Positions 16,109 through 46,422 of a stretch of DNA of 47,562 nucleotides are shown here, piece by piece. The position numbers and the translations under genes are program-made. The stretch is from an uncultured Bacilli bacterium. Lineage in GTDB: Bacteria > Bacillota_I > Bacilli_A > RF39 > UBA660. The stretch lies in NCBI GenBank assembly GCA_944332535.1, contig CALVKE010000011.1, forward strand, positions 1 to 47,562, in the 5' to 3' direction. The notes beneath the pieces are model-generated. The model saw nothing but the letters and a program-made list of their open reading frames with translations, was not told the DNA's origin and searched no databases. Numbering within the stretch: position 1 is the stretch's first letter; each line of letters starts with the position of its first letter.

Positions 16109-16768
16109 TTAAGATTCGCCGTTTTCCACAATAGACAAATAATTTTGACAAAAAATCAAAGGAATGAAAAAGAATAGTAACAAAATACCAACACCAAAGA
16201 AAAAAGAATATTTTTCTAAAAACTCGCTCTTCATCCAAAAACCAGTACTGAAAAGAAGAAGAACACTCATCAAAAAGGCAGGAAAACATTTTGAAAACAA
16301 AAAGTAGAAAAATAACATAGCAAGTGGAATGAACTCTTGAAAAAGGATATCAAAAAACAAAAATTGAAAACAAAATTGCCAAGGAATATCGAAAGAAGAA
16401 AAGAAAAAGGAAAAAAGGAGAAAGAGGCCTACTAAAAAGACCTTTAACAACAACTGAAAAAGAAAACAAGATAGTAGTTTAATTCGAATCCATTTTTTTA
16501 AACTCATACGCAAGAATAAAAAAGAGGGGTGTTCTTTTCTGTCTTTTGTAATTAAAAAAATAGAAAAATAAAGGTGAATCGCCATCCAAAAAAAGAGAAA
16601 AGGACCGTCGCCATAACCTAAAAAACGCAAATATCGTTCTGTAAAGGGCTGAAAATGTTGAAAAGAAAAAGCAAAACTACATCCAACGGTCAATGCAACA
16701 AGAAACAAAAGCAAGAAAGAAAACCGACGAAAGAAATAGAAAAAATCATTATATAATATATATTTCAT
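16109..16768 (-). CDS. Polytopic membrane protein, probable permease partner of the ABC ATPase (extremely Phe-rich)
   Basis: 219 aa with multiple hydrophobic segments. My hand count gives about 52 Phe out of 219 residues. The ATGA overlap with the ATPase stop at 16765-16768 implies translational coupling. Confidence 0.6.
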   Translation of the reverse strand: MKYILYNDFFYFFRRFSFLLLFLVALTVGCSFAFSFQHFQPFTERYLRFLGYGDGPFLFFWMAIHLYFSIFLITKDRKEHPSFLFLRMSLKKWIRIKLLSCFLFQLLLKVFLVGLFLLFSFFFSSFDIPWQFCFQFLFFDILFQEFIPLAMLFFYFLFSKCFPAFLMSVLLLFSTGFWMKSEFLEKYSFFFGVGILLLFFFIPLIFCQNYLSIVENGES

Positions 16769-17412
16769 AGACCCTCACGACTTACTTCTTTTACGACTCC
16801 CGCATCAAACTCATATACGACATCTACAATTGTTTGAATATCTTCTTTGATATGGGTTGCTAAAATAATGGTTTTCCCCATCTCTTTTAATCGCACTAAC
16901 TCTTCTCTTAACGCATCGGTCGTCTCTTTTTCAATTCCGTTAAACGGCTCATCTAAAATAAGAATATCTACATCTTCCATTAACACTTGCGCAATTCCTA
17001 ACTTCTGCTTCATTCCTAAGGAGTACTCACTAAATTTTTGATTTCTCTCATCATAAAGACGTACTCTTTTTAAAGCGTCCAAAATTTTCTCATCTCCTAT
17101 TTTATCTTGAATAGAAGCTAATAATTTTAAATTTCGATATCCAGATAAATGCGGTAAAAAACTGGGTTTTTCAATCAATGCTCTCGTACTAGGGGCAAAG
17201 TCACGTTCCTTTATAACATTCTTTCCATCAAAGAGCACCTCTCCAGAAGTAGGAACGTAAAACCCGCAAATAATTTTCAAAAGAACACTTTTTCCACTTC
17301 CGTTTTTCCCAATAAAACCATATATTTTACCAGGATTCAATTCCATATTAACATTTTCTAACACCGTATGGTTTTTAAATTTTTTAGAAACATTTACAAC
17401 ATCAATTCTCAT
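16765..17412 (-). CDS. ABC transporter ATP-binding protein (ABC-2/DrrA-like single NBD)
   Basis: 215 aa with Walker A GKNGSGKS, signature LGMKQKLGIA and Walker B ILILDEP. Confidence 0.9.
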   Translation of the reverse strand: MRIDVVNVSKKFKNHTVLENVNMELNPGKIYGFIGKNGSGKSVLLKIICGFYVPTSGEVLFDGKNVIKERDFAPSTRALIEKPSFLPHLSGYRNLKLLASIQDKIGDEKILDALKRVRLYDERNQKFSEYSLGMKQKLGIAQVLMEDVDILILDEPFNGIEKETTDALREELVRLKEMGKTIILATHIKEDIQTIVDVVYEFDAGVVKEVSREGL

Positions 17413-17468
17413 CTTTTACTCCTTAAAAATAAATAAGAAAAATCAATCTCCTTTTCCAACGAAAAAGA

Positions 17469-18347
17469 TTAACTTGCCTCTTCATTACAAATAATAAATT
17501 TTTCCTTATCGCGGTAATAATAATGTAAAAATAAAGTTGTTAACAAATATAATACGACCATAATGGAAAGAACCAAACCTAAATTAGTAAATTCATCTAC
17601 TTGCCAAGAGGCAATCAAACTAAAATTAGAAGCAATATTCTCGATTCCTAATATCTTCCGAATAAAGATACCACCAACAAAGAATTCCAAAATAATCTGT
17701 AGAGCCATATAAAACACAAAAGATTTAAAGGTTCCAATCAAAAAGTTAGACGATTTTTTCAAACAAATAAATGCAATATTAACACATAAAAGCATATGAA
17801 AAACAATAATTGAAAAATAAAGAAGCAAAAATTGTCCAAAATGTTGATAATAATATTCTATTAGTTGCAGATTTCTAGTATTTAGATAATCAAAATTTCC
17901 CTGTGTAGCAATAATACAGATAAAAAAGAACAATAGAAAGGCACACGGAACAATAAAAATAGTTTTTTTAATCGCATCAAAATAGATATTCCTCTTTTCC
18001 TTTTGATAACTCGTTCTAGTTAATTCGTTTTTATAAAACCCAGATTTCACTAAACGATAGACGGAGAAAGTTGCAAGAGAAAAAATAATGATTGGTAAAA
18101 ATAAAAATTTTGCTGTTGCAGTTTTCGTATCCGCAATAAATAAAGTGATTGCATCTAGACTTTCTATTTTGGCGTTTTCAATATATTTTTGAATATCCTC
18201 ACAATTGTTTTTTTCTTCACAAGTAGGAAGCATTTCCTCATATATTTTTATTACTTCCTGGGAATAACGAAATTCTCCTATAAGATAGTAACAAAAAAAC
18301 AAGACAAGACCCAGCATGACGAGAATTGACACAAAATACTTCTTCAT
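17469..18347 (-). CDS. Polytopic membrane protein, probable ABC-2-type permease
   Basis: 292 aa with an N-terminal TM, a roughly 50-aa loop containing 3 Cys, and at least five further hydrophobic segments. It is the first gene of the three-gene unit with the ATPase. Confidence 0.55.
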   Translation of the reverse strand: MKKYFVSILVMLGLVLFFCYYLIGEFRYSQEVIKIYEEMLPTCEEKNNCEDIQKYIENAKIESLDAITLFIADTKTATAKFLFLPIIIFSLATFSVYRLVKSGFYKNELTRTSYQKEKRNIYFDAIKKTIFIVPCAFLLFFFICIIATQGNFDYLNTRNLQLIEYYYQHFGQFLLLYFSIIVFHMLLCVNIAFICLKKSSNFLIGTFKSFVFYMALQIILEFFVGGIFIRKILGIENIASNFSLIASWQVDEFTNLGLVLSIMVVLYLLTTLFLHYYYRDKEKFIICNEEAS

Positions 18348-19534: not shown

Positions 19535-20233
19535 CTATTTGTCAAAAGAATTAATTTGAACTTTAATTCCTGGACCCATAGTAGTAGCAACGCTAATATT
19601 TTTGATATAATCTCCTTTTACCGTTGCTGGTTTTACTTTTAAGATAGTTCCAACAAATGCATTTAAGTTATCAAGCAATTGTTCTTCTGTAAAACTTGTT
19701 TTTCCGATAATTCCATGTACATTTCCAAAAGAATCTGTACGATAAGTTACACGTCCTGCTTTTACCTCATTAACAGCTTTTTCTACATCTAATGTAACAG
19801 TACCTGTTTTTGGGTTTGGCATTAATCCTTTTGGTCCTAATAATTTACCAAGTTTTCCAAGTAAAGGCATCATGTCAGGAGTTGCGATCATAACATCGAA
19901 ATCGAACCAGTTTTCTTTTTCGATTTTTTCTAACATGTCAACATCTCCAACATAGTCAGCACCAGCATCTTTTGCTTTCTTAGCATTCTCTCCTCTAGCA
20001 ATGACTAAAACTCTTTTTGTTTTTCCAGTACCGTGAGGAAGAACGATAGCTCCTCTTAATTGTTGATCAGCCTTTTTTGTATCCAAATTTAATCTTAAGG
20101 CTACTTCAACAGAAGAGTCGAATTTGCTAACAGATGTTTCTTTTACAAGTTTTACAGCTTCTTCTTTGGAATAAACTTTTCCTTTTTCCAATTTTTCTAA
20201 AGCTTGTATATACTTCTTGCTTCTTTTCTTCAT
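19535..20233 (-). CDS. rplA: 50S ribosomal protein L1
   Basis: I moved the start to the ATG at 20233 ([14 protein letters not shown]...), which is preceded by AAGGAGGT. The 37 extra codons in the track translate the structured spacer. Confidence 0.95.
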
Positions 20234-20249
20234 TTCTTTAACCTCCTTA

Positions 20250-20333
20250 TGTGGTATATGATTTCCTAATGGAAACCGAAGCGATGCAAAACGCATCGGG
20301 CTGGCGGATAGTTTATATTCTTTTCCTCCCACA
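20250..20333 (-). promoter_or_regulatory. Candidate L1-binding 23S-stalk mimic abutting the rplA SD
   Basis: The minus strand reads UGUGG-GAGGAAAAG...(inner hairpin CGAUGC-GUUUU-GCAUCG)...UCAUAUA-CCACA-UAAGGAGG. Compare the 23S H76-78 strands GGUGG-GAGGC... and ...GAAAUA-CCACC. The closing helix ends 1 nt before the SD. Confidence 0.5.
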
Positions 20334-20362
20334 CAGGTTAACAACCTATATGTGAACTAAGT

Positions 20363-20788
20363 TTAATCTACGATTTCAATACCCATATTACGTGCAGTAC
20401 CTTCTACAATTTTCATTGCATCTTCTACTGTATAAGCATTCAAATCTGGTAATTTAGTTTCGGCAATCTCCTTTAATTGAGCTCTTGTAATCTTACCAAC
20501 AACATCACTAGATCCTTTTGTAGATCCCTTACTAATTCCTGCGGCTTTCTTAAGTAAGAATGGTGCTGGTGGAGTCTTAATTACAAAATCGAAAGATCTA
20601 TCATCATAAATAGAAATTTCAACTGGTAAAATATCTCCCATTTTATCTCTAGTTGCATCATTATATTTTGTACAGAACTCTTGTAAATTGATTCCTGCAG
20701 GTCCTAACACTGTTCCAACTGGTGGAGCAGGGGTAGCTTTTCCAGCAGCAATCTGTAATTTTACTTTTTTTACAACTTCTTTTGCCAC
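20363..20788 (-). CDS. rplK: 50S ribosomal protein L11
   Basis: I moved the start to the GTG at 20788 ([25 protein letters not shown]...), because the track's GTG at 20797 is part of the SD GGAGGTG. Confidence 0.95.
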
Positions 20789-20828
20789 GAAAAACACCTC
20801 CTATAAATTTTCTTATCACGTTTTCGCG

Positions 20829-20865
20829 AGTGGTCCTAATAGCTTTTTCCGCCAAGCTTCCCACT
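20829..20865 (-). promoter_or_regulatory. Candidate L1-binding stalk mimic in the rplK leader
   Basis: The minus strand reads AGUGG-GAAGCUU-GGCGGAAA-AAGCU-AUUAGGA-CCACU. It has the same helix/internal-loop layout as the 23S L1 stalk and as the site at 20250-20333. Confidence 0.45.
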
Positions 20866-20898
20866 AAATTTGCCTATATAAATCCATATAGCACGTAA

Positions 20899-20927
20899 AT
20901 AATAACATTAAAGTCTTGAAAAATCAA
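20899..20927 (-). promoter_or_regulatory. SigA-type promoter of rplK-rplA
   Basis: The minus strand reads TTGATT-17 nt-TATTAT with an extended -10 TG (TGTTATTAT). Confidence 0.55.
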
Positions 20928-20952: not shown

Positions 20953-20984
20953 TAAAAGAAAAGACTTAGTGTTTGAGCACTAAG
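20953..20984 (-). terminator. Rho-independent terminator after the prepilin-like gene
   Basis: CTTAGTG-CTCAAA-CACTAAG is followed by TCTTTTCTTTT on the minus strand, 8 nt after the stop codon. Confidence 0.7.
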
Positions 20985-20991
20985 CTTATCT

Positions 20992-22809
20992 TTAACGGCA
21001 ACTACAATTTCGAGTACACTGAGTATAAGTACAACTTTTACATTCGTTACTACCAACATGGCTTGGTCCGTTACAACTATATCCTTGGGATTCATATACC
21101 GATGGCCGATGTTCTGGAGCACAAGCAACCTCCCCGTCTGCACTACATGCAAAGACTACGTCACATTGCCAAGTACAATTTCTTTCCCAATGTGCATATA
21201 ACGTTTGATTTGCAGTAATAGAAACAAGATTAGAAGAAGTAATTTGAGACCCTCCCGAAGCAGAAGTAAACCATCCTTTAAATGTATGTTCTGCTCTACT
21301 TGGTGTTGGTAGGCTACCGTACGTAGAAGCATAGCTTACTGTCTTACTACCAGGAGAAACACTTCCACCGTTGGCATTAAAGAATACCGTATAAGTACGA
21401 GGATTCCAACGAGCATATAATGTCTGATTAGAAGTGATATTAACGCGACTACCAGAAGTAATTTGTGTACCACCAGAAGTTGCTGTATACCATCCACCAA
21501 AATTGTAACCTGCCCTGCTTGGAGTAATTAAATTACCATAAGTATTTCCATAAGTGACATTCATTACAGTAGAAGCAGGAGTTCCTCCATTTCCATTGAG
21601 TGTAACTTTATAAGTATTGGCTTTCCAAACAGCATTTAATACATGATTAGAAGTGGTATTCACGACCGTTGTATTGAAAATACGATTTCCACTAGCATTA
21701 TTCCATCCTTGGAATGTATATCCTACTCTACTTGGATTTGGTAGTGTTCCATAGGGCTCTGCATAAATAACTGTTTTACTTGTCGGAGAAACGCTTCCGC
21801 CATTGGCGTTAAAAGTTACCGTAGATCGAGCAGTAATAATAACAGAAGTCGATGCTTGGCTTACCAATCCAGCACCAGTCGTAGCACTACAAGTAACGTT
21901 ATTTCGTCTAGTAAGTCCTAATTCAGAAACAGTCGCATTCTTAGAAATTGTACCATTATCATTTAAATAAAGTGTGGTACTACCTGATTTACATTCTATC
22001 ACTCCGCCGCTTGGCCCAAAAGAACCTATTTCAAACAAGTCAGACACTTTCGTCGTCTTATAACTCGTATCATTCCATAAAAATTCATTACTCGGACTTT
22101 TGCTTGTTAGGGTAATTGGATTTTTATCAATTCTAACCGGATATACTTCCGTCGATTCACTGATATTACCATCTTTATCTATGGCTCTCACACTAACATC
22201 ATGAGATTCACTCAAAACAAACGAGTCTCCCGAAAAATCCTCCCATTCTTCTCCATCAAGAGATCTTTGATAAGTAGCTACTTCCGCACCAAAAAGTTCG
22301 TTGTTAAAAAATTGTTGATAAATATTTTTACTACTCCAAGTACCTGCAGAATAACTTGCTCCATTTTGATTTTCGTACTTTAAAACATAATCCACAGCAT
22401 ATACAGATTCATCCAAATCACAACTCGCATTTTCCGTTTTATATTCTCCACAAGTCATACAGACTGTATAATCATAATCATTATTACCTTTCTTTTGAAT
22501 AATGACATATCCTTCTTCACATGGATTTCCATCTTTATCCGTAATTTGTTCCATCTCATTATACTTAACAATTTGATCTATCGTAATCTTTTTCACAGAC
22601 CCTACTGTTCTTGGCAAAAAACTACGATTTTCAAGAGAAAAATCAATAGCAGATAACCGAACATTATCTTCCAAAACTTGATAATATTGATCTCCCGTCT
22701 GATCAATAAAACTTTTTACTGCAGGATATGCAATAATCATTAAAACCGGAAGAATAACTAAAACTGCTAATAATTCAATCAAGGTAAATCCTTTCTTACT
22801 CGCTTTCAT
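20992..22809 (-). CDS. Chimeric type IV prepilin-like surface protein: class III signal, pilin-like head, three Listeria-Bacteroides (Flg_new) repeats and a Cys-rich tail
   Basis: 605 aa. The N-terminus MKASKKG|FTLIELLAVLVILPVLMIIAYPAV has the canonical prepilin-peptidase motif with Glu at +5. Residues about 328-543 are three repeats of about 72 aa (..F.ANGG.....K.V.Y...YG.LP.PSR.GY.F.GW......G..I.......I..N..LYA.W). The last 61 aa contain 10 Cys. Confidence 0.8.
   Translation of the reverse strand: MKASKKGFTLIELLAVLVILPVLMIIAYPAVKSFIDQTGDQYYQVLEDNVRLSAIDFSLENRSFLPRTVGSVKKITIDQIVKYNEMEQITDKDGNPCEEGYVIIQKKGNNDYDYTVCMTCGEYKTENASCDLDESVYAVDYVLKYENQNGASYSAGTWSSKNIYQQFFNNELFGAEVATYQRSLDGEEWEDFSGDSFVLSESHDVSVRAIDKDGNISESTEVYPVRIDKNPITLTSKSPSNEFLWNDTSYKTTKVSDLFEIGSFGPSGGVIECKSGSTTLYLNDNGTISKNATVSELGLTRRNNVTCSATTGAGLVSQASTSVIITARSTVTFNANGGSVSPTSKTVIYAEPYGTLPNPSRVGYTFQGWNNASGNRIFNTTVVNTTSNHVLNAVWKANTYKVTLNGNGGTPASTVMNVTYGNTYGNLITPSRAGYNFGGWYTATSGGTQITSGSRVNITSNQTLYARWNPRTYTVFFNANGGSVSPGSKTVSYASTYGSLPTPSRAEHTFKGWFTSASGGSQITSSNLVSITANQTLYAHWERNCTWQCDVVFACSADGEVACAPEHRPSVYESQGYSCNGPSHVGSNECKSCTYTQCTRNCSCR
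21181..21828 (-). repeat. Three tandem coding repeats of about 216 nt (Flg_new / InlB B-repeat type) inside the prepilin-like gene
   Basis: The protein-level repeats are TVTFNANGGSVSPTSKTVIYAEPYGTLPNPSRVGYTFQGW..., YKVTLNGNGGTPASTVMNVTYGNTYGNLITPSRAGYNFGGW... and YTVFFNANGGSVSPGSKTVSYASTYGSLPTPSRAEHTFKGW.... Confidence 0.8.
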
Positions 22810-22822
22810 TATTCCACCTCAT

Positions 22823-23692
22823 TTACTTTAAAATTAATACTACCACGCGATAATTACCTTGAAAATAACTATTAAAATAACTATCATCATCATTCGTAGA
22901 AAAGGCCAAGTATTCTCCGTCTAAAGAATAATTGTCTAAAGAAATCGTAGATATCGTTTGCAAACTTTCCAGAGAAACACGATTTAAAAAATCTTCTTTT
23001 TGCTCCGTACCTTTTGCATACTCAATATAATTAGCAATACTTTGTCTTAAACTCTCTCTTACCGTATCTAAACTAGCCGCAAACGTCACAACTTTATGGG
23101 AAAAAGCATTTGTCTCTTCTTTATAAATGATGGACCCTTTTCGATTATACACTTTTCCTTCCCAACTATCCTGCAAATTTCCCTTTTGATAATCTTCTAA
23201 CGAAATCGTAGCATCTAAAGTTTCTTTTAGGGTGATTTCTTTATTTAAGTCCATTTTAATTCGGTATTGATCCTCTTTTTTATCTACCTCAATTCCATCT
23301 TCTAAAAAATGATAATCATTCGTAGTATTGGTATTAAACACTGCTAGGAAACTAAGATCTTTACTCTTTTGCTGTAAAACAGTATCAATAAGACCTAGGG
23401 CAACTACTTCTTCCAGATAATCTTCGCTACTCAAGACATCATTTTCAACATTAATAACAATAGTCTCTTTCTTGGAATCGTTCAATTCAAAATGAGAAGA
23501 GTCTCGTTTTTTAGCAGTTACCTTCACCTCTTCTCCATCGACAAAGGAAGAAATATTTCGTTCATTAAATTGCTCTACGATAGTATCTAATCGATTCTCT
23601 ATTTGCTGACCTTTAGAAAAAAGAGATAAAAAAACTCCCATTATAATAAAACACAAACCACACAATAACAATAACACTCTTCTTTTGTTCAT
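22823..23692 (-). CDS. Signal-anchored extracytoplasmic protein of unknown function (first gene of the prepilin cassette)
   Basis: 289 aa. The N-terminus is MNKRRVLLLLCGLCFIIMGVFLSLF, followed by an acidic, Asp/Glu/Ser-rich soluble part in which I recognise no motif. The stop lies 13 nt before the prepilin ATG. Confidence 0.6.
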   Translation of the reverse strand: MNKRRVLLLLCGLCFIIMGVFLSLFSKGQQIENRLDTIVEQFNERNISSFVDGEEVKVTAKKRDSSHFELNDSKKETIVINVENDVLSSEDYLEEVVALGLIDTVLQQKSKDLSFLAVFNTNTTNDYHFLEDGIEVDKKEDQYRIKMDLNKEITLKETLDATISLEDYQKGNLQDSWEGKVYNRKGSIIYKEETNAFSHKVVTFAASLDTVRESLRQSIANYIEYAKGTEQKEDFLNRVSLESLQTISTISLDNYSLDGEYLAFSTNDDDSYFNSYFQGNYRVVVLILK

Positions 23693-23721
23693 TACATTAC
23701 ACTTCCCTCTATTTTATCCTC

Positions 23722-23751
23722 ATTCTAACACGCGAAGCAAAAATTTGTCAA
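23722..23751 (-). promoter_or_regulatory. SigA-type promoter of the 289-aa/605-aa cassette
   Basis: The minus strand reads TTGACA (23746-23751)-18 nt-TAGAAT (23722-23727) with an upstream TG (TGTTAGAAT). Confidence 0.6.
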
Positions 23752-23761
23752 GTACAAGAAG

Positions 23762-23807
23762 TGCAAACAAAAACAGTTATCTTCCATCAATAAAAGAAAA
23801 TAACTGT
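23762..23807 (-). terminator. Rho-independent terminator after the nusG-coupled ORF
   Basis: A 12-bp stem ACAGTTATTTTC/GAAGATAACTGT (one G:U pair) is followed by TTTTTGTTTG on the minus strand. Confidence 0.7.
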
Positions 23808-23817
23808 CATCATTTTA

Positions 23818-24219
23818 TTATTTACGAATCAAATTAGTGTGATCCATCGTAAATGTCGGACTATTTAAAATTCCTTGTCCGAGCAATAAATCTAATTTTT
23901 GAAATTCGATTTCAGCAATTTTATTCGATAATAATTTACTAGCAACCGGTTGATAACGCTTTTTTAACTCAGTCTCATTGCGACCACTAGCATAATAGTC
24001 ATCACAAATTTTAGCATCAAACGGATAAAGCAAAGTCGAAGAAACTAAGATTCCCTCAACAGAATCCAAAGCATATCCTAGTTCTTTTTGTACAACATGA
24101 ACGATTTCTTTTTCCGAAAGATCACCGCGCTTAGCATATAAATCATATGCCTTTTGTTTCAATTCTACATATTCATCTGCAGGAAATGACGTCAACAGTT
24201 CTTGAAAACTAACCTTCAT
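23818..24219 (-). CDS. 133-aa soluble protein of unknown function, translationally coupled to nusG
   Basis: It has no TM or signal and starts MKVSFQELLTSFPADEYVELKQKAYDLYAKRGDLSEKEIVHVVQKELGY.... Its ATG overlaps the nusG TAA (TAATG at 24219). Confidence 0.6.
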   Translation of the reverse strand: MKVSFQELLTSFPADEYVELKQKAYDLYAKRGDLSEKEIVHVVQKELGYALDSVEGILVSSTLLYPFDAKICDDYYASGRNETELKKRYQPVASKLLSNKIAEIEFQKLDLLLGQGILNSPTFTMDHTNLIRK

Positions 24220-24755
24220 TATTTCAATACCTCAATTTCTGATAAATCAACTTCGATAGAAGTTTCTTGTCCAAACAAATCAACAAGTAACATAATCTTT
24301 GAATTTGGAATATCCATCGAATCGATTTTTCCAATCATTCCTTCAAATGGACCGGAAGCAATCTTGACTTTCGTTCCAACCGCTAAATCTTTGTCTACTT
24401 CAATACGACTCATTCCCATATCTTTTAAGATTTTATCCACTTCATATGGTTGTAAAGGAGTAGGTTTGGCACCCTTTCCACTAGAACCGATAAATCCAGT
24501 TACTCCTGGAGTATTACGCACAACATACCAAGCATCATCGCTCATAACCATTTCCACTAAGATATATCCAGGAAACATTTTCTTAACTTTTTCTTTTTCT
24601 ACTCCATCTTTTACTTCGACAACCTTCTCTTCAGGAACGATTACTCGAAAAATATAGTCTTTCATATCCATGCTTTCAGCACGCATTTCTAATTTTTCTT
24701 TTACCTTATTCTCATGTCCAGAATAGGTGTTAACAACATACCATTCTTTTTCCAT
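24219..24755 (-). CDS. nusG: Transcription termination/antitermination factor NusG
   Basis: 178 aa. The NGN domain starts WYVVNTYSGHENKV, and the KOW segment is VGTKVKIASGPFEGMIGKI. Confidence 0.95.
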   Translation of the reverse strand: MEKEWYVVNTYSGHENKVKEKLEMRAESMDMKDYIFRVIVPEEKVVEVKDGVEKEKVKKMFPGYILVEMVMSDDAWYVVRNTPGVTGFIGSSGKGAKPTPLQPYEVDKILKDMGMSRIEVDKDLAVGTKVKIASGPFEGMIGKIDSMDIPNSKIMLLVDLFGQETSIEVDLSEIEVLK

Positions 24756-24758
24756 CTT

Positions 24759-25091
24759 CTACACCCACGCTTTCACTAATGCCATAATTGCTTCGATTGC
24801 ATAGAAAAATACTCCAAAAAATAGAACAAAGCAAATAGTAGCAATAGAATATTTTACCATGTCATTTCGACTTGGCCATTTAACTTTATCAAGTTCTGCT
24901 TTTACTTCTTTTAAAAACTTTATTGGCCCTCCATGTTGCTTCTTTTCTTTTTTCTTAGTTTTCTTAGAAGTTTTCGATACGGCCTTCTTTTTTTCTTCTG
25001 TTTTATCCTTCTTTGCTATTTTTGAAGAAACTTTTTTTACTTCCTCTTCGACATCAACGATATCGCGAGTTGCTTTTACAACTTTTGCCAT
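24759..25091 (-). CDS. secE: Preprotein translocase subunit SecE with a Lys-rich N-terminal extension
   Basis: 110 aa. The C-terminal 55 aa are SecE-like (FLKEVKAELDKVKWPSRNDMVKYSIATICFVLFFGVFFYAIEAI). The N-terminal roughly 50 aa are a K/E-rich low-complexity stretch. Confidence 0.85.
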   Translation of the reverse strand: MAKVVKATRDIVDVEEEVKKVSSKIAKKDKTEEKKKAVSKTSKKTKKKEKKQHGGPIKFLKEVKAELDKVKWPSRNDMVKYSIATICFVLFFGVFFYAIEAIMALVKAWV

Positions 25092-25209: not shown

Positions 25210-26061
25210 TTAAGAATTTGTTCTTTCGTTTCTCTTAATCAGCTTAGCTTGCACCACTATCCTTTGTCCGTTATTATCCTTACAAGTGGATAGGGTTAAA
25301 ATAGAATCTTCTACTGTTACTTCTGTATCAACAGGGGCAGTATTTCTTTTCTTCATAGTATCAATCCAAGCTTGTTTTGCCTCATCTGTTTCAAAAGTAG
25401 TCATAATGTAATAGGATTCCGCTTCGATCGTGTAGATAGAAAAAATTTGATATACATAATTATAACGAGGAGTAGATATTCGAATAATATAATTGTCCTT
25501 ATTTTCTTGCCAAGAAGTAGTTAAGACCTTTTTTAAAGAACCAAAAACCGTATTATCTACTCTACCATGTCCATATATTACTGTATTATCCGATAAATCG
25601 TCCAAATTGTTTCGATAATCCAAAAAGACCCAACCAGCAGAATTTTTTGTTTTATCAAACGCATGCGTCAAATAATAAGTATTATCTCCGCTATAGACGA
25701 CAGGATAATTAATATTGGTATTATTTACTTTAATATATCCGACAGTATCCGAATTTTTTTCTTTTAACTTGGAAAAATCCACTTGCATAAAGGGAACTTT
25801 TATATAATAGTAGTAATCACTTTCTTTATCCGGAGAAGGATTCACCAATACCTCATTATCCGGTAAATGAATGGTATTATCATCCACCTCGACAATATCA
25901 GCCATCTCTTCTAATTCTTTCTGTAACTTTTCGTTATTTTGCCCATCTTGTCCCCAGTGAAACACATAGTACGCGCCACCGATAAACAAAGAGGCAAAAA
26001 GGACAAAAAGAAACACAACGACCCAAAGTCTTAAACGATACCTCTTTTTTCGCTTCGTCAT
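25210..26061 (-). CDS. srtB: Class B sortase
   Basis: 283 aa with an N-terminal anchor. Motifs are GYIKVNNTNINYPVVYSGDNTYYLTH, VIYGHGR and the catalytic ILTLSTC...R. The adjacent gene ends in an NPxTxD-type sorting signal. Confidence 0.8.
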   Translation of the reverse strand: MTKRKKRYRLRLWVVVFLFVLFASLFIGGAYYVFHWGQDGQNNEKLQKELEEMADIVEVDDNTIHLPDNEVLVNPSPDKESDYYYYIKVPFMQVDFSKLKEKNSDTVGYIKVNNTNINYPVVYSGDNTYYLTHAFDKTKNSAGWVFLDYRNNLDDLSDNTVIYGHGRVDNTVFGSLKKVLTTSWQENKDNYIIRISTPRYNYVYQIFSIYTIEAESYYIMTTFETDEAKQAWIDTMKKRNTAPVDTEVTVEDSILTLSTCKDNNGQRIVVQAKLIKRNERTNS

Positions 26062-26084
26062 ACGATCACATCCTAAAAACGTCT

Positions 26085-26112
26085 AAATGAAAAGTGATGT
26101 TACCATCACTTT
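26085..26112 (-). terminator. Hairpin after the surface-protein gene (weak or partial terminator)
   Basis: It has a 9-bp stem AAAGTGATG-GTAA-CATCACTTT, but the trailing T-run is poor (TCATTTAGACGTTTTT). Confidence 0.4.
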
Positions 26113-26117
26113 CCTTT

Positions 26118-27398
26118 TTAATTACTTAATCTTTTTTTCATGGTACGAAGAGTAATGCCAAGTCCTAGAAGACCAATACCAGATAATGTAACAGCAAGCA
26201 TTACAGGATCAGAAGTACTTGGGTTTGGTTCAGATTCTTCGGGATCAGTTGGAACAGTTGGATCGCCAGTACCTTCATCCGTATCTTCCATAGAACCTAA
26301 AATAGCATATTCACTCAAGTGAGTAGTGTTAAATACGGCATAATCTCCTTCTACTTGAACAGCAAAAGTTTCTACGACTTTATTATCTTTGATATAAGCA
26401 GCTGTTAAAGTAGTATACTTTTTCATTTCGTCTGTTAATTTGATTCTAATTGTAAACTTTCCATCTTCCATAGGAACAATGTCATTATTCTCGTCTAAAA
26501 TTGAAATATCATAGAAAGCAAGTAAATCTTTATTTAAAGCTTCAATTTCTGAAGTTAACTCGTCACTAGCATCTGCAAGAATATTTTTGCTTTCTAGTTT
26601 ATAATTCGTATTCAAATTCGTTTCAGATTCAAATACAACTTCTTCATCGGTCAATACTTTGTTATCAGAGAAAACAACACTTCCATCTTCTCCATAAGTA
26701 ACCATTTTATCGGTTTTGATATGAGAGTTAACCCACTCTTCTGTAATTGCACCAGGTACAACATGATAATCTGGATTAATGAAGTAAAGAGAACTATCAT
26801 ATTCAATTCCTTCTAAAGCGGAATTAAATTTTTTTGCTTCCTCAAATTTTGCCTCAAAATCTTCTTTTGAAGTAACTAAGAAATTATCTCCATTTTCATC
26901 TAATACTTTGTACTGAGCACCATTAATATCTCTGAAGATAACATAGTATAATTGGTTACCATCTTCATCCAATGTTTTTTCGGTTCCATAAATACCCTTT
27001 ACCGTCAAAGAACCTTCTCCTGTAATAATGTAGTCATCATCTACAAGAAGATCGATGGCATTTTTTCCATTAACCACAATTGTACTGGTAGGAACTACCA
27101 TGTTTTCAGATCCTCCATAAAGATAAAAACTTTGGTCTTTTGCAAATTCAAATGTATTTTTAGAATCTGTAAAAGTTCCGATAGTTACTTCTTCTGTAGT
27201 TGGATTCGTAACACAAGTATGACTTGTTAGAGTCATAGAATCATTCAAAGATCCTACTCCACAAATATCACGTTCAGAAACACCCCACATGATTTCATAA
27301 TCTGGGGCTGCTATAGATGCCTTTACCAACATTGGAGAAAGAACCATCGCACACGCCAAAACGCCAAACACTTTTTTGCCTATTTTACTTGACAACAT
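26118..27398 (-). CDS. Cell-wall-anchored surface protein with an NPSTSD (SrtB-type) sorting signal
   Basis: The signal peptide is MLSSKIGKKVFGVLACAMVLSPMLVKASIAA, with the start moved to the ATG at 27398, 8 nt after AAGGGA. The C-terminus is NPSTSD followed by the hydrophobic PVMLAVTLSGIGLLGLGITL and then RTMKKR. Confidence 0.75.
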   Translation of the reverse strand: MLSSKIGKKVFGVLACAMVLSPMLVKASIAAPDYEIMWGVSERDICGVGSLNDSMTLTSHTCVTNPTTEEVTIGTFTDSKNTFEFAKDQSFYLYGGSENMVVPTSTIVVNGKNAIDLLVDDDYIITGEGSLTVKGIYGTEKTLDEDGNQLYYVIFRDINGAQYKVLDENGDNFLVTSKEDFEAKFEEAKKFNSALEGIEYDSSLYFINPDYHVVPGAITEEWVNSHIKTDKMVTYGEDGSVVFSDNKVLTDEEVVFESETNLNTNYKLESKNILADASDELTSEIEALNKDLLAFYDISILDENNDIVPMEDGKFTIRIKLTDEMKKYTTLTAAYIKDNKVVETFAVQVEGDYAVFNTTHLSEYAILGSMEDTDEGTGDPTVPTDPEESEPNPSTSDPVMLAVTLSGIGLLGLGITLRTMKKRLSN

Positions 27399-27457
27399 AT
27401 CTATCATCCCTTTCACTATTATAATATCAAAAATTTATGTTATGTGTCAATACGATT

Positions 27458-34500: not shown

Positions 34501-34528
34501 ACAAAAAAGAATACAAAATTTGTATTCT
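34501..34528 (-). terminator. Rho-independent terminator before clpC
   Basis: The near-perfect palindrome AGAATACAAA-T-TTTGTATTCT is followed by TTTTTTGT on the minus strand and touches the upstream stop codon. Confidence 0.65.
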
Positions 34529-35766
34529 TATTGCATTAATAAATAGATACCAACAGCAATCGCTAGTACGTCCACCACCAAGAAAAATATTAAACTACCA
34601 TAATTAGCTAGACCAGAAGAAGAGGTAGAAGAAGAGGTAGGCATCTCTCCTAATTTTAATACCCTAGTAGGTCCTTTTTCTGGCGAATTGTTTCCGGTCA
34701 CCTGTTCCTCAAAAGAGGCTTGAAGATTTTCCTCTTGTTGAATCACATCGTCTTGCTCTAACTGTTGTAAATTAATTTTTCCTTCTTCATTTCCAAACAA
34801 GTTATGTTTCTTATCCGCTGCAACAATCGATTCAATCGAATTAACAGAATATCCTTCTAAGTAAATACTATCTTCATTATCACCGCTAGATAAATAACAA
34901 GTTGTAGAATTCATTTCATTAACCGTTACTTCTCGTCCACTAGAGGTTACATTTTTACTAAATCCATCAATAATAGACGGAAGAGCATCTTGATCAAATT
35001 GATAACCATCTTCATAGCCAAACACTTCGTTAGAAACTGCAACCCCATTTTCTTTATCAATATAACTTACGGTAATTAAACGATCATACTGACTATCTTC
35101 TTTATTTTGCTTCACAATCGCCATTCTTACTAAAATATTTTCTCCGGTCTTATTACGAACAAATTTTTCGTAATAATCCACTTTCGATTCCCCAACAGCA
35201 AGTTCTTCTGGTTGCTCTTTACTCTTGGAAGCAGGCGATAATTCCTGAAGAGCCATACTAAGAGCCTCTTCTAAACTGCGCCCCATCTCTTCTGGAAAAC
35301 GAACTTGGTTTCCTTCTACTACAAAACCAGCTTTTCTTAATACTTCTAACATTTCTTTCATATCTGTTCGAATGCGATATTTTTTTTGATTCGGAAGATT
35401 TTGAACACCAATACCAAATTTTCCTTCATACTCTAAAGAACGTTTAAAAAGTTCATAACTATTACGAAGTTGAGGATTCATTTTTTCTACATAATCAACC
35501 GTTTGATCATAAGTAGACAATGACCATGACAAACGCTCAAACAAAAGGGAAGGATCCAAATTAGCTTGATTTCCGTTTATTCTAATTTGAGAAGATCCAT
35601 TTTGGTTTAATAAAAGAAGATCATAGTTTGCTTGATCATAAAAATCTACTAACAGTTTTTCCAAATAATCCTGACTTTTTTCATCATACACAAAGGAAAC
35701 TGTTTTTCCATCAAAGCGAGTAGAAATACCAGCTTGTTTCAACTGTTCTAAAAGTTCGTTCGTCAT
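34528..35766 (-). CDS. Tail-anchored protein of unknown function
   Basis: I moved the start to the ATG at 35766 (MTNELLEQLKQAG...) with SD GAGGAAGTG, giving 412 aa. There is no signal peptide. A Ser-rich stretch precedes the C-terminal TM SLIFFLVVDVLAIAVGIYLLMQ. There is an internal echo, LLEQLKQAGISTRFDGKTVSF versus MLEVLRKAGFVVEGNQVRF. Confidence 0.6.
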   Translation of the reverse strand: MTNELLEQLKQAGISTRFDGKTVSFVYDEKSQDYLEKLLVDFYDQANYDLLLLNQNGSSQIRINGNQANLDPSLLFERLSWSLSTYDQTVDYVEKMNPQLRNSYELFKRSLEYEGKFGIGVQNLPNQKKYRIRTDMKEMLEVLRKAGFVVEGNQVRFPEEMGRSLEEALSMALQELSPASKSKEQPEELAVGESKVDYYEKFVRNKTGENILVRMAIVKQNKEDSQYDRLITVSYIDKENGVAVSNEVFGYEDGYQFDQDALPSIIDGFSKNVTSSGREVTVNEMNSTTCYLSSGDNEDSIYLEGYSVNSIESIVAADKKHNLFGNEEGKINLQQLEQDDVIQQEENLQASFEEQVTGNNSPEKGPTRVLKLGEMPTSSSTSSSGLANYGSLIFFLVVDVLAIAVGIYLLMQ

Positions 35767-35820
35767 AAAATCACTTCCTCTATTATTTATAACAATCATA
35801 CCATAAAAAGCTTTTTTTGA

Positions 35821-35846
35821 AAAGAAAAAAAGAAGCAAAAGCTTCT
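35821..35846 (-). terminator. Rho-independent terminator after the permease gene
   Basis: AGAAGC-TTTT-GCTTCT is followed by TTTTTTTCTTTT on the minus strand. Confidence 0.65.
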
Positions 35847-45300: not shown

Positions 45301-46422
45301 CTACATCTTATCCAACAATTTATCTAATTTCCTACTTTTGAAATGAAAAATGATCCAACAAATAAGAGCAATAATAACAAGAATTCCTAAAACAACAAAG
45401 GCTATTTTCTTTTGTTTTTCCGTAATAACAAACTTTTTTTCTTCCGCTTGTTCTTCCTCTTTTTCGATGCCGTTACTTACTCGATTAATACGAATAGTAT
45501 AAGTTTGTTCCTCTCCATTTTCTGCTTTTACTACAATTCTTACATCGGAGCCGGAAGCGATAGAATCGGCACCAATAATTTCATAAGTTGCTTTACTATC
45601 AGCGGGTTCTGCGTGAACTGTTAAAGATTCTACATCCTCACTAACAGTAATATAGTAATGGTATTGATCTTCTTTAAAAGGAATTTCATAATGATCGATT
45701 GTTAGTGTTTTCAGATTTGCATTGGAAGAGGTGGAAATATCCGGAGTGGGAGAAGGTGTTGCATGAGAGGTAAAATTCTCTTTAGCCTGCTCTAATTGTT
45801 CATTGGTAACTTCGATATTGGGTTCGCTTTCAATTACAACACTCGTCTCTGGTGGAGCAGTTACTTCGGTCTCACTTTTTAAAATGGAAACAGTAGTAAT
45901 TGATTCTGTCGTATATTCTAATAATTCCGCATTTTCTTCCAAATAGCTTTCCAACGTCGGGTCGACTTTAAATCCACCGGCCGCTGCTTCTAATACTTTG
46001 ATGTCCACCGTCTCTTTTGAATCATTTTTAACATAAAATCTGATATTAGCAGAATAATCGGTACAAGCCAAAAATTGATCGACACACTTATTTCCGGTAG
46101 AATCCAGATCAATAATACTAAGAATATAATAATAATTATCATCTTTGTATATTTGTGCATCATAAAAATCTGTCAAAACTCCACTGATTTCTAAGACGGA
46201 ATCATCAAATGCAAGAGCTAATACCACCGTATAAATACCGGTAGTATTTTCACTATTTCGATCGATTCCAGAAAAACGAACATTAACCGGAAGATAAAAG
46301 CTTGATCCAACAGATTGTTCCGTATTGATATCGGATATAGAAACACTAGAAATAGAAGCTGCACTTACGCTAAACGGGACAAGAAAAAACATTAACAATA
46401 GAATAACAATAAACTTCTTCAT
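45301..46422 (-). CDS. Membrane-anchored surface protein with a cohesin-like N-domain and a cadherin-like beta-sandwich domain
   Basis: 373 aa. The signal peptide is MKKFIVILLLMFFLVPFSVSAAS. The segment NANLKTLTIDHYEIPFKEDQYHYYITV...VHAEPADSKATYEIIG...VKAENGEEQTYTIRINR fits the cadherin-like beta-sandwich pattern. The C-terminal TM is IAFVVLGILVIIALICWIIF. Confidence 0.65.
   Translation of the reverse strand: MKKFIVILLLMFFLVPFSVSAASISSVSISDINTEQSVGSSFYLPVNVRFSGIDRNSENTTGIYTVVLALAFDDSVLEISGVLTDFYDAQIYKDDNYYYILSIIDLDSTGNKCVDQFLACTDYSANIRFYVKNDSKETVDIKVLEAAAGGFKVDPTLESYLEENAELLEYTTESITTVSILKSETEVTAPPETSVVIESEPNIEVTNEQLEQAKENFTSHATPSPTPDISTSSNANLKTLTIDHYEIPFKEDQYHYYITVSEDVESLTVHAEPADSKATYEIIGADSIASGSDVRIVVKAENGEEQTYTIRINRVSNGIEKEEEQAEEKKFVITEKQKKIAFVVLGILVIIALICWIIFHFKSRKLDKLLDKM

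Follow-up and report, generated by a model that had tools for sequence, protein, structure and literature searches.

The DNA analysed here is a window of 47,562 nucleotides (positions 1 to 47,562 of contig CALVKE010000011.1, assembly GCA_944332535.1) from an uncultured Bacilli bacterium of the RF39/UBA660 lineage, in which 3.2 kb lie between nusG and the ribosomal protein gene rplK. This interval holds three open reading frames (ORFs), designated p133, p289 and p605 after their length in amino acids (aa), the last two of which are predicted to encode a membrane-anchored partner protein and a modular type IV pilin. All genes of the locus lie on the minus strand, in the order secE, nusG, p133, p289, p605, rplK, rplA, L10 leader (RF00557), rplJ and rplL. 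The secE gene (24759-25091) precedes nusG (24219-24755; Pfam NusG, 108 bits), the upstream anchor of the junction, and p133 (23818-24219) begins with an ATG that shares nucleotide 24219 with the nusG stop (TAATG). Next comes p289 (22823-23692), which encodes a single-pass membrane protein, and 13 nt past its stop p605 (20992-22809) begins, the gap between them holding the ribosome-binding site GAGGTGGA. The downstream anchor, rplK (20363-20788), carries the N- and C-terminal Ribosomal_L11 domains of Pfam; its true start is the GTG at 20788, conserved as part of GVG and kept in relatives, and the GTG at 20797 falls within the GGAGGTG ribosome-binding site. The ORFs, the nusG overlap, the promoter and both hairpins listed in an earlier note on this DNA were all recovered at the positions it gave. 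The locus was compared with those of relatives collected by a NusG-based scan with one genome per species, which gave 80 loci (NusG identity 71-90%), most of them from uncultured gut organisms entered as 'Bacilli bacterium' and including Clostridium sp. CAG:710 and a closed genome of 1.31 Mb.

Past p133, a hairpin followed by a U-run (23762-23807, minus strand) is predicted from its RNA fold to be an intrinsic terminator closing the secE-nusG-p133 transcript. It consists of a 14-bp stem with extra closing pairs (-17.8 kcal/mol, z = -5.7, none of 200 shuffles being as stable), followed by UUUUUGUUUG. A sigma-70 promoter for p289-p605 is predicted from a consensus match at 23722-23751 (minus strand), TTGACA-18-TAGAAT with a TG extension, which agrees with the consensus at 11 of 12 positions and is, jointly with one other site, the best in the 5 kb scanned. 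Beyond p605, a terminator scan and folding place a second predicted intrinsic terminator at 20953-20985 (minus strand; -13.8 kcal/mol, z = -4.3), which leads into the U-run CUUUUCUUUU. With a predicted promoter of its own, 13-nt spacing and predicted terminators on both sides, p289-p605 looks like a self-contained unit, as had been suggested before, to judge from consensus matches and folding energies. In the relatives that carry a p133 homologue there is no such hairpin, and the stop of that homologue leads straight into the rplK promoter, which indicates that the terminator and promoter at 23722-23807 are specific to the arrangement with the cassette. The idea that the cassette promoter and that of rplK share an origin was rejected, as their likeness, compared by eye, is confined to the consensus elements.

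The first of the three genes has a history of its own. Homologues of p133, collected with jackhmmer to convergence, follow nusG directly in 21 of the 80 relatives, always as the first gene, and 7 of these 21 are tandem two-domain forms. The family evolves fast, its members sharing about 20% identity where the NusG proteins of the species compared share about 80%, and its invariant residues are Y17, K21, P66, K100 and E103. No match to p133 was found in Pfam or NCBIfam; 20 members of the family gave two isolated weak family matches only, and a profile search of the PDB gave nothing below E = 0.18. Its presence after nusG in so many relatives shows that the p133 family predates the cassette and is separate from it. 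p133, a cytoplasmic protein, is thus encoded by a lineage-specific gene of the nusG unit, inherited and translationally coupled with nusG, and lies outside the insertion; what had been described as a three-gene insertion is an addition of two genes. The protein could be a lineage-specific factor tied to NusG or to transcription.

The larger protein of the pair, p605, is built of four segments. Residues 1-132 (22414-22809, minus strand) comprise a class III signal peptide (MKASKKG/FTLIE, the stroke marking the predicted cleavage site) and a type IV pilin module, identified by N_methyl, TIGR02532, a profile search and an AlphaFold2 (AF2) model. The 7-residue leader, MKASKKG followed by FTLIELLAVLVILPVLMIIAY, has the Gly at its end, the Phe at +1, the Glu at +5 and the hydrophobic helix of a class III signal. 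The N_methyl model of Pfam scores 26.2 bits against a cut-off of 21.2 and TIGR02532 30.7 bits against 16.3, and G7, F8, T9, L10 and E12 are invariant in 19 homologues. The profile of the module matches solved type IV pilins, among them PilE1 (8pfb) over positions 7-110 (104 positions) with E = 6.5e-7, and AF2 models residues 11-130 at a predicted local distance difference test (pLDDT) score of 78-95, with a helix of about 50 residues (10-60) followed by beta-strands. The middle region, residues 133-332 (21814-22413, minus strand), probably forms Ig-like or beta-sandwich spacer domains, for which there are weak matches only; an OmpL47-type barrel (E = 6e-5) is below the cut-off, AF2 confidence is low, and a motif, VRAIDKDGNIS...IDK, is shared with proteins P0003 and P0005. 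Residues 333-545 (21175-21813, minus strand) hold three Flg_new (Listeria-Bacteroides or InlB B-repeat) domains, which PF09479 matches in three stretches with 162.4 bits against a cut-off of 27 and TIGR02543 with 70 bits against 20.95; the internal DNA repeats D1 and D2 lie in this segment. The C-terminal tail, residues 546-605 (20995-21174, minus strand), is recognised by the positions of its 10 cysteines. Cys-rich tails without a family match also end P0003, P0008 and the upstream protein of locus L001 (2-433); three Cys-tailed proteins of the pilin-headed set end in CPxGGTLxGxxC(Y/F), an ending that the 10-Cys tail of p605 lacks. The first 125 residues or so of p605 are all that 18 homologues have in common; their C-terminal domains differ and include Ig-like, laminin-G, HYR and DUF285 domains as well as Cys-rich tails.

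A modular pilin is defined as an N-terminal pilin module joined to at least one domain that is not specific to type IV pilus biology, and 264 architectures are listed for the class (Raynaud et al. 2021, PMC8179133). With N_methyl and three Flg_new repeats, p605 falls within that definition as given there (PMC8179133), and its domain content identifies it as a modular type IV pilin of this described class. The reading of p605 as a prepilin-like multidomain protein is therefore borne out by the N_methyl and Flg_new matches, and the suggestion that it belongs to an undescribed kind of appendage gives way to the published modular-pilin class (PMC8179133). The nearest counterparts are PilB (vWA) and PilC (lectin) of Streptococcus sanguinis, which likewise have a short class III leader, a small pilin module and C-terminal effector modules, come from a monoderm Firmicute, and share with p605 the predicted role in adhesion and the probable tip location (PMC8179133). 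Unlike them, p605 carries three Flg_new domains and a 10-Cys tail in place of vWA or lectin modules, is encoded outside a pil locus, alone at a housekeeping operon boundary, and has a conserved non-pilin single-pass partner gene, for which nothing comparable is described with PilB or PilC (PMC8179133). A resemblance to Com and type II secretion system pseudopilins lies in the N-terminal 50 residues, which match the ComGC, ComGD and GspG models of NCBIfam. However, p605 scores far under the equivalog cut-offs (28 against 75 bits; 21 against 89 bits), and unlike pseudopilins of about 100-140 aa it is 605 aa long and lies outside any comG or gsp operon. With Listeria internalin-type B-repeat proteins it has three canonical Flg_new repeats in common, and only this segment is matched by the InlA and InlH models; p605 differs from internalins in lacking a leucine-rich repeat domain, a signal for signal peptidase I and an LPXTG or GW anchor, the predicted pilin module serving as anchor instead. 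The modular-pilin class is thus already described, and the p289 partner is undescribed.

The p289 product begins with KRR and about 22 hydrophobic residues and continues into an extracellular domain of about 255 aa, so that a single N-terminal membrane anchor is expected. An exhaustive search of 1.84 billion representative proteins returned four close clusters and one fragment, together with about 24 weak matches to Firmicute proteins that bear a signal peptide, a lipobox or an LPXTG-type anchor. The close homologues (P0023, P0002, P0024 and P0025) are 36-43% identical. For p289 and 29 family members, no match at E<=0.01 was found in Pfam, NCBIfam or the PDB, and from these comparisons p289 is assigned to an unannotated family of surface-protein domains. 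The earlier note had described a 289-aa signal-anchored protein without a recognised motif, which agrees with these searches, and the profile searches it proposed for p133 and p289 place neither of them in a described family. Both families are unannotated and constitute open leads. Word-indexed homologue searches were insensitive for the two proteins, with 2 matches each. A PilN/PilO-like identity of p289 was rejected, as its profile gave nothing at E<=5 against the PDB. Metagenomes were also scanned: the p289 family alignment gave 25 pattern matches, none of which was confirmed, and the pilin-module alignment matched mostly generic pilins at the N-terminus only, with no p289 homologue in the 80 loci of that second scan.

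A relationship between p289 and the pilin module is suggested by the gene neighbourhoods of its close homologues. In L095/L096, between efp and rnhB, a 1009-aa protein with N_methyl, 5 Flg_new domains and an ALK/LTK glycine-rich region is followed after 16 nt by a p289-type partner. L001 encodes an incomplete protein whose C-terminal part is a Flg_new repeat with a Cys-rich tail, then a p289-type partner, and rnhB follows. L093 has ffh, a 148-aa pilin module 60% identical to that of p605 and a p289-type partner, and L094 an upstream gene with a glycine-rich tail that reads like the end of the L095 protein, then, after 25 nt, the partner and ftsA. All close p289 homologues with usable flanks therefore have as neighbour a gene with a pilin head or a fragment that would fit one, which is the result asked of the adjacency test that had been proposed for 289- and 605-type genes. 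The pilin heads that are visible (L095 and L093) are 60% identical to that of p605 and have the same unusual Pro in the membrane helix. Pairs are found in at least three chromosomal neighbourhoods (nusG/rplK, efp/rnhB, ffh and ?/ftsA), the p289-type and pilin genes are 13-40 nt apart throughout, and in L095 and L093 promoter-like hexamers and a terminator-like hairpin were seen by eye around the pair. Small signal-anchored genes that follow other pilin-headed genes (132 aa in L085, 152 aa in L088) were tried as relatives of p289 and showed no detectable homology. The remote p289-like proteins P0029 and P0031 lie either on uninformative contigs or without a pilin neighbour.

It could be argued that p289 and p605 are functionally unrelated neighbours, surface genes that gather at the operon boundaries of these compact genomes and whose adjacency goes back to one ancestral locus rearranged later. 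Two further accessory blocks at nearby junctions of the window (one with sortase B and a substrate-like protein of 432 aa, the other an ABC module), a remote p289-like family member without a pilin link and the small number of species sampled would all fit such an account. It is nonetheless judged highly improbable, given that the adjacency has outlasted at least three neighbourhoods, an inversion of gene order and the full replacement or loss of the C-terminal modules of the pilin, at a spacing of 13-40 nt. That the pair withstands relocation, inversion and the exchange or loss of C-terminal modules points to a functional tie with the pilin module as such.

The interpretation preferred here, and considered probable, is that the 3.2 kb between nusG and rplK comprise two unrelated things: p133, which belongs to the nusG unit, and a native p289-p605 operon encoding a modular-pilin adhesin and its partner. 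The sequences show the gene content, motifs, domain matches, conserved adjacency, variable junction and native base composition; for the operon we infer processing of p605, its incorporation into a filament, adhesion and a physical interaction between p289 and p605, along the following lines. The two genes would be transcribed from their own predicted promoter, and a prepilin peptidase would cut p605 after Gly7 of MKASKKG/FTLIE. Type IV filament machinery encoded elsewhere would next take up the pilin module, most likely placing it at the filament tip, and the Ig-like region, three Flg_new repeats and Cys-rich tail of p605 would be exposed there and serve as an adhesin. Itself anchored in the same membrane, p289 would most likely work on the pilin module or together with it, by docking or stabilising it or by being displayed alongside, as it stays with that module whatever the C-terminus (none, Flg_new with a Cys tail, or Flg_new with a glycine-rich region). 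A pilin-headed Flg_new adhesin with swappable terminal modules and a partner would be a candidate for attachment to hosts, mucus or microbes, and the organisms of the clade, being abundant, uncultured and small-genomed, make such a candidate relevant to host interaction. It is also conceivable, as a speculative and rather unlikely extension, that the p289 subfamily is a dedicated and so far unrecognised accessory factor of one modular-pilin subfamily in small-genome gut Bacilli, forming a portable two-gene display module with swapped adhesive C-terminal modules, in which the partner is needed to dock, stabilise or prime the pilin, possibly without linked classical machinery.

Several observations weigh against the operon being read as a pilin-partner module. 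In the window the partner gene comes first, whereas in the other loci it comes second, and the adjacency rests on only four or five species-level clusters, several of them represented by contigs about 2 kb long. In L001 and L094 the gene ahead of the partner is incomplete, so that its pilin head is deduced from the tail and not seen. The remote family member P0029 is not beside a pilin gene, which suggests that the pilin link is specific to the close p289 subfamily. The AF2 model of p289, built from two sequences, has a pLDDT of 41 and is unusable, leaving the p289-p605 interaction with no structural support, and the AF2 model of p605 residues 1-335, dominated by 200 low-confidence residues, gave no significant Foldseek match in the PDB. 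Finally, no prepilin peptidase, assembly ATPase or platform gene was found in the 47.5-kb window or in the fetched neighbouring loci.

This last result bears on whether p605 enters a filament at all. Its pilin-like N-terminus might be a membrane anchor only, p605 never being polymerised and its helix, cleaved or not, holding the Flg_new and Cys-rich ectodomain at the surface, with p289 separately anchored and co-expressed. No type IV filament machinery lies near any of about 10 loci with pilin-headed proteins, whose genes stand alone among housekeeping genes; the genomes of relatives are small, as in the closed genome of 1.31 Mb; and a bulky C-terminal extension, here of 470 aa, is hard to pack in the body of a filament (PMC8179133). 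A plain anchor, however, needs no class III signal, and the full signal (Gly at -1, Phe at +1, Glu at +5) is strictly kept in 19 homologues. In addition, short ComGC-like pilins occur in related contigs (125 aa in L090; also L101, L102 and L119), and type IV systems commonly have orphan minor-pilin genes located apart from the machinery. The use of the pilin head as an anchor alone is accordingly regarded as unlikely, if a serious possibility, and incorporation of p605 into a filament as the preferred reading.

The setting of the operon was described in the earlier note as an insertion inside one of the most conserved gene junctions. Across the clade this junction is not rigid. Of the 80 loci, 75 showed rplK downstream of nusG; in 45 of them 141-240 nt separate nusG from rplK, and in the remaining 30 the distance is 0.5-6.8 kb, with at least one extra gene in between. 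The inserts differ: some are a gene for about 130 aa or its two-domain form of about 285 aa, others encode a 230-aa protein or an HNH-like protein of 138 aa, L084 has a sigma factor, and L071 carries a block of 6.8 kb that includes three tyrosine integrases. For L079, L081 and L083, no rplK was found in the 4-8 kb past nusG, and in L079 nusG is followed by a serine recombinase. In the closest relative, L005 (NusG 90% identical), the gap is 211 nt and contains no gene. A 3.2-kb gap is thus unusual only against textbook genomes. It was also observed that in L071 (8536-14763) and L072 the gap holds a 232-aa protein and an N-terminally anchored protein of about 500 aa, followed in L071 by three consecutive tyrosine-integrase genes; the latter indicate that mobile DNA does use the nusG-rplK junction.

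The DNA directly upstream of rplK is conserved. The rplK promoter (TTGATT-17-TATTAT with TG) and its structured leader occupy 20797-20927 (minus strand), and 130 nt upstream of rplK can be aligned with 42 relatives, giving an alignment of 43 sequences. The elements in common are a TTGATT / TGnTATTAT promoter, a GCUAUAU...AUAUAG hairpin, AGUGGGA(A/G)GC, a variable insert, GCUAUUnGGACCACUCGCGAAAAC, a GGAGG ribosome-binding site and the GTG start. The invariant blocks of the leader include AGTGGGA and ACCAC, and the hairpin arms GCTATAT...ATATAG are nearly invariant. No Rfam match to the leader was found at E<=1; we take it to resemble the L1-binding autoregulatory leader of the L11 operon. The p289-p605 cassette sits between the end of the nusG/p133 unit and this intact, clade-conserved promoter and leader, that is, at an inter-operon boundary where no transcription unit is split, and the contiguous array that it had been thought to interrupt is two adjoining units. 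The cassette is therefore an accessory insertion at a clade-variable operon boundary, and nothing essential is disrupted. In E. coli and B. subtilis, too, rplK has its own promoter and leader and nusG ends a separate upstream unit. The boundary seen here is like the secE-nusG/rplKAJL-rpoBC boundary of those species in that a promoter and structured leader lie directly upstream of rplK and nusG closes the unit before it, but it differs in being filled in 30 of 75 relatives of the clade and, in the window, by p133 and the pilin cassette. The textbook secE-nusG/rplKAJL arrangement is, in a large clade of uncultured gut Bacilli, a permissive operon boundary that repeatedly gathers accessory genes, so a break in gene order alone is no sign of something exotic.

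The variability of the junction raises the question of how the cassette came to lie there. It might be a recently acquired mobile or horizontally transferred island targeting the nusG-rplK junction, in keeping with its absence from all 80 relatives' loci, including that of L005 with its 211-nt gap, with the occurrence of p289-pilin pairs at other chromosomal sites in other species, and with the integrases or recombinase that some relatives hold at the junction or just after nusG. In the window, the ORFs include no integrase or transposase, and no flanking direct or inverted repeats were found beyond short chance matches, in agreement with what the earlier note had reported; there is no tRNA gene at the cassette either. 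G+C content at third codon positions (GC3) is 0.25 for p289 and 0.21 for p605, within one standard deviation of the window mean of 0.243 +/- 0.040, and neither GC3 nor overall codon composition can be told apart from those of the housekeeping neighbours. The raised total G+C of p605 is located in second codon positions and thus reflects amino-acid content. The cassette therefore has none of the marks of a mobile element or genomic island that were looked for in the window: no integrase or transposase ORF, no repeats above chance, and a native GC3. Identical or near-identical copies occur on contigs from several samples of the same species, which, with the native GC3, points to a settled species-specific accessory unit and not to a recent foreign insertion. 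Recent horizontal transfer was accordingly rejected on GC3, and an acquired island is considered very unlikely.

The rest of the window is a classic Firmicute housekeeping block (clpC, cysS, a Mini-III-like RNase gene, rlmB, sigH, secE, nusG, rplKAJL, a methyltransferase gene and rpoBC), collinear with the closest relatives L005 and L011, in which further accessory blocks and candidate surface genes were observed, all on the minus strand. Between secE and a conserved gene for 188 aa (25210-27416) there is a second block of surface-protein genes, which encodes a class B sortase (TIGR03064, 155.8 bits against a cut-off of 153.75) and p432, a protein of 432 aa whose end (NPSTS, a hydrophobic stretch and KKR) looks like that of a sortase B substrate. 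A homologue of the sortase is present in none of the 80 fetched loci and one of p432 in at most one locus; lacking homologues in the fetched loci of the closest relatives, the block appears to be species-specific. A third block, between rplL and the ybxB-like methyltransferase gene that precedes rpoB (16109-18347), encodes a 292-aa protein without a family, an ATP-binding cassette (ABC) ATPase and a 219-aa protein without a family; in L038, the same rplL-methyltransferase junction holds a 395-aa N_methyl (pilin-headed) protein. Two more candidate surface genes stand among housekeeping genes, encoding a 373-aa protein with a cadherin-like beta-sandwich domain (45301-46422) and a 436-aa protein without a family (34528-35838). 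Downstream of rplK, the rplA ORF as called (19535-20344, 269 aa, TTG start) is too long; its real start is probably the methionine of MKKRSKKY near 20233, which would give an rplK-rplA spacer of about 130 nt, the corresponding spacers in relatives being 70-260 nt.

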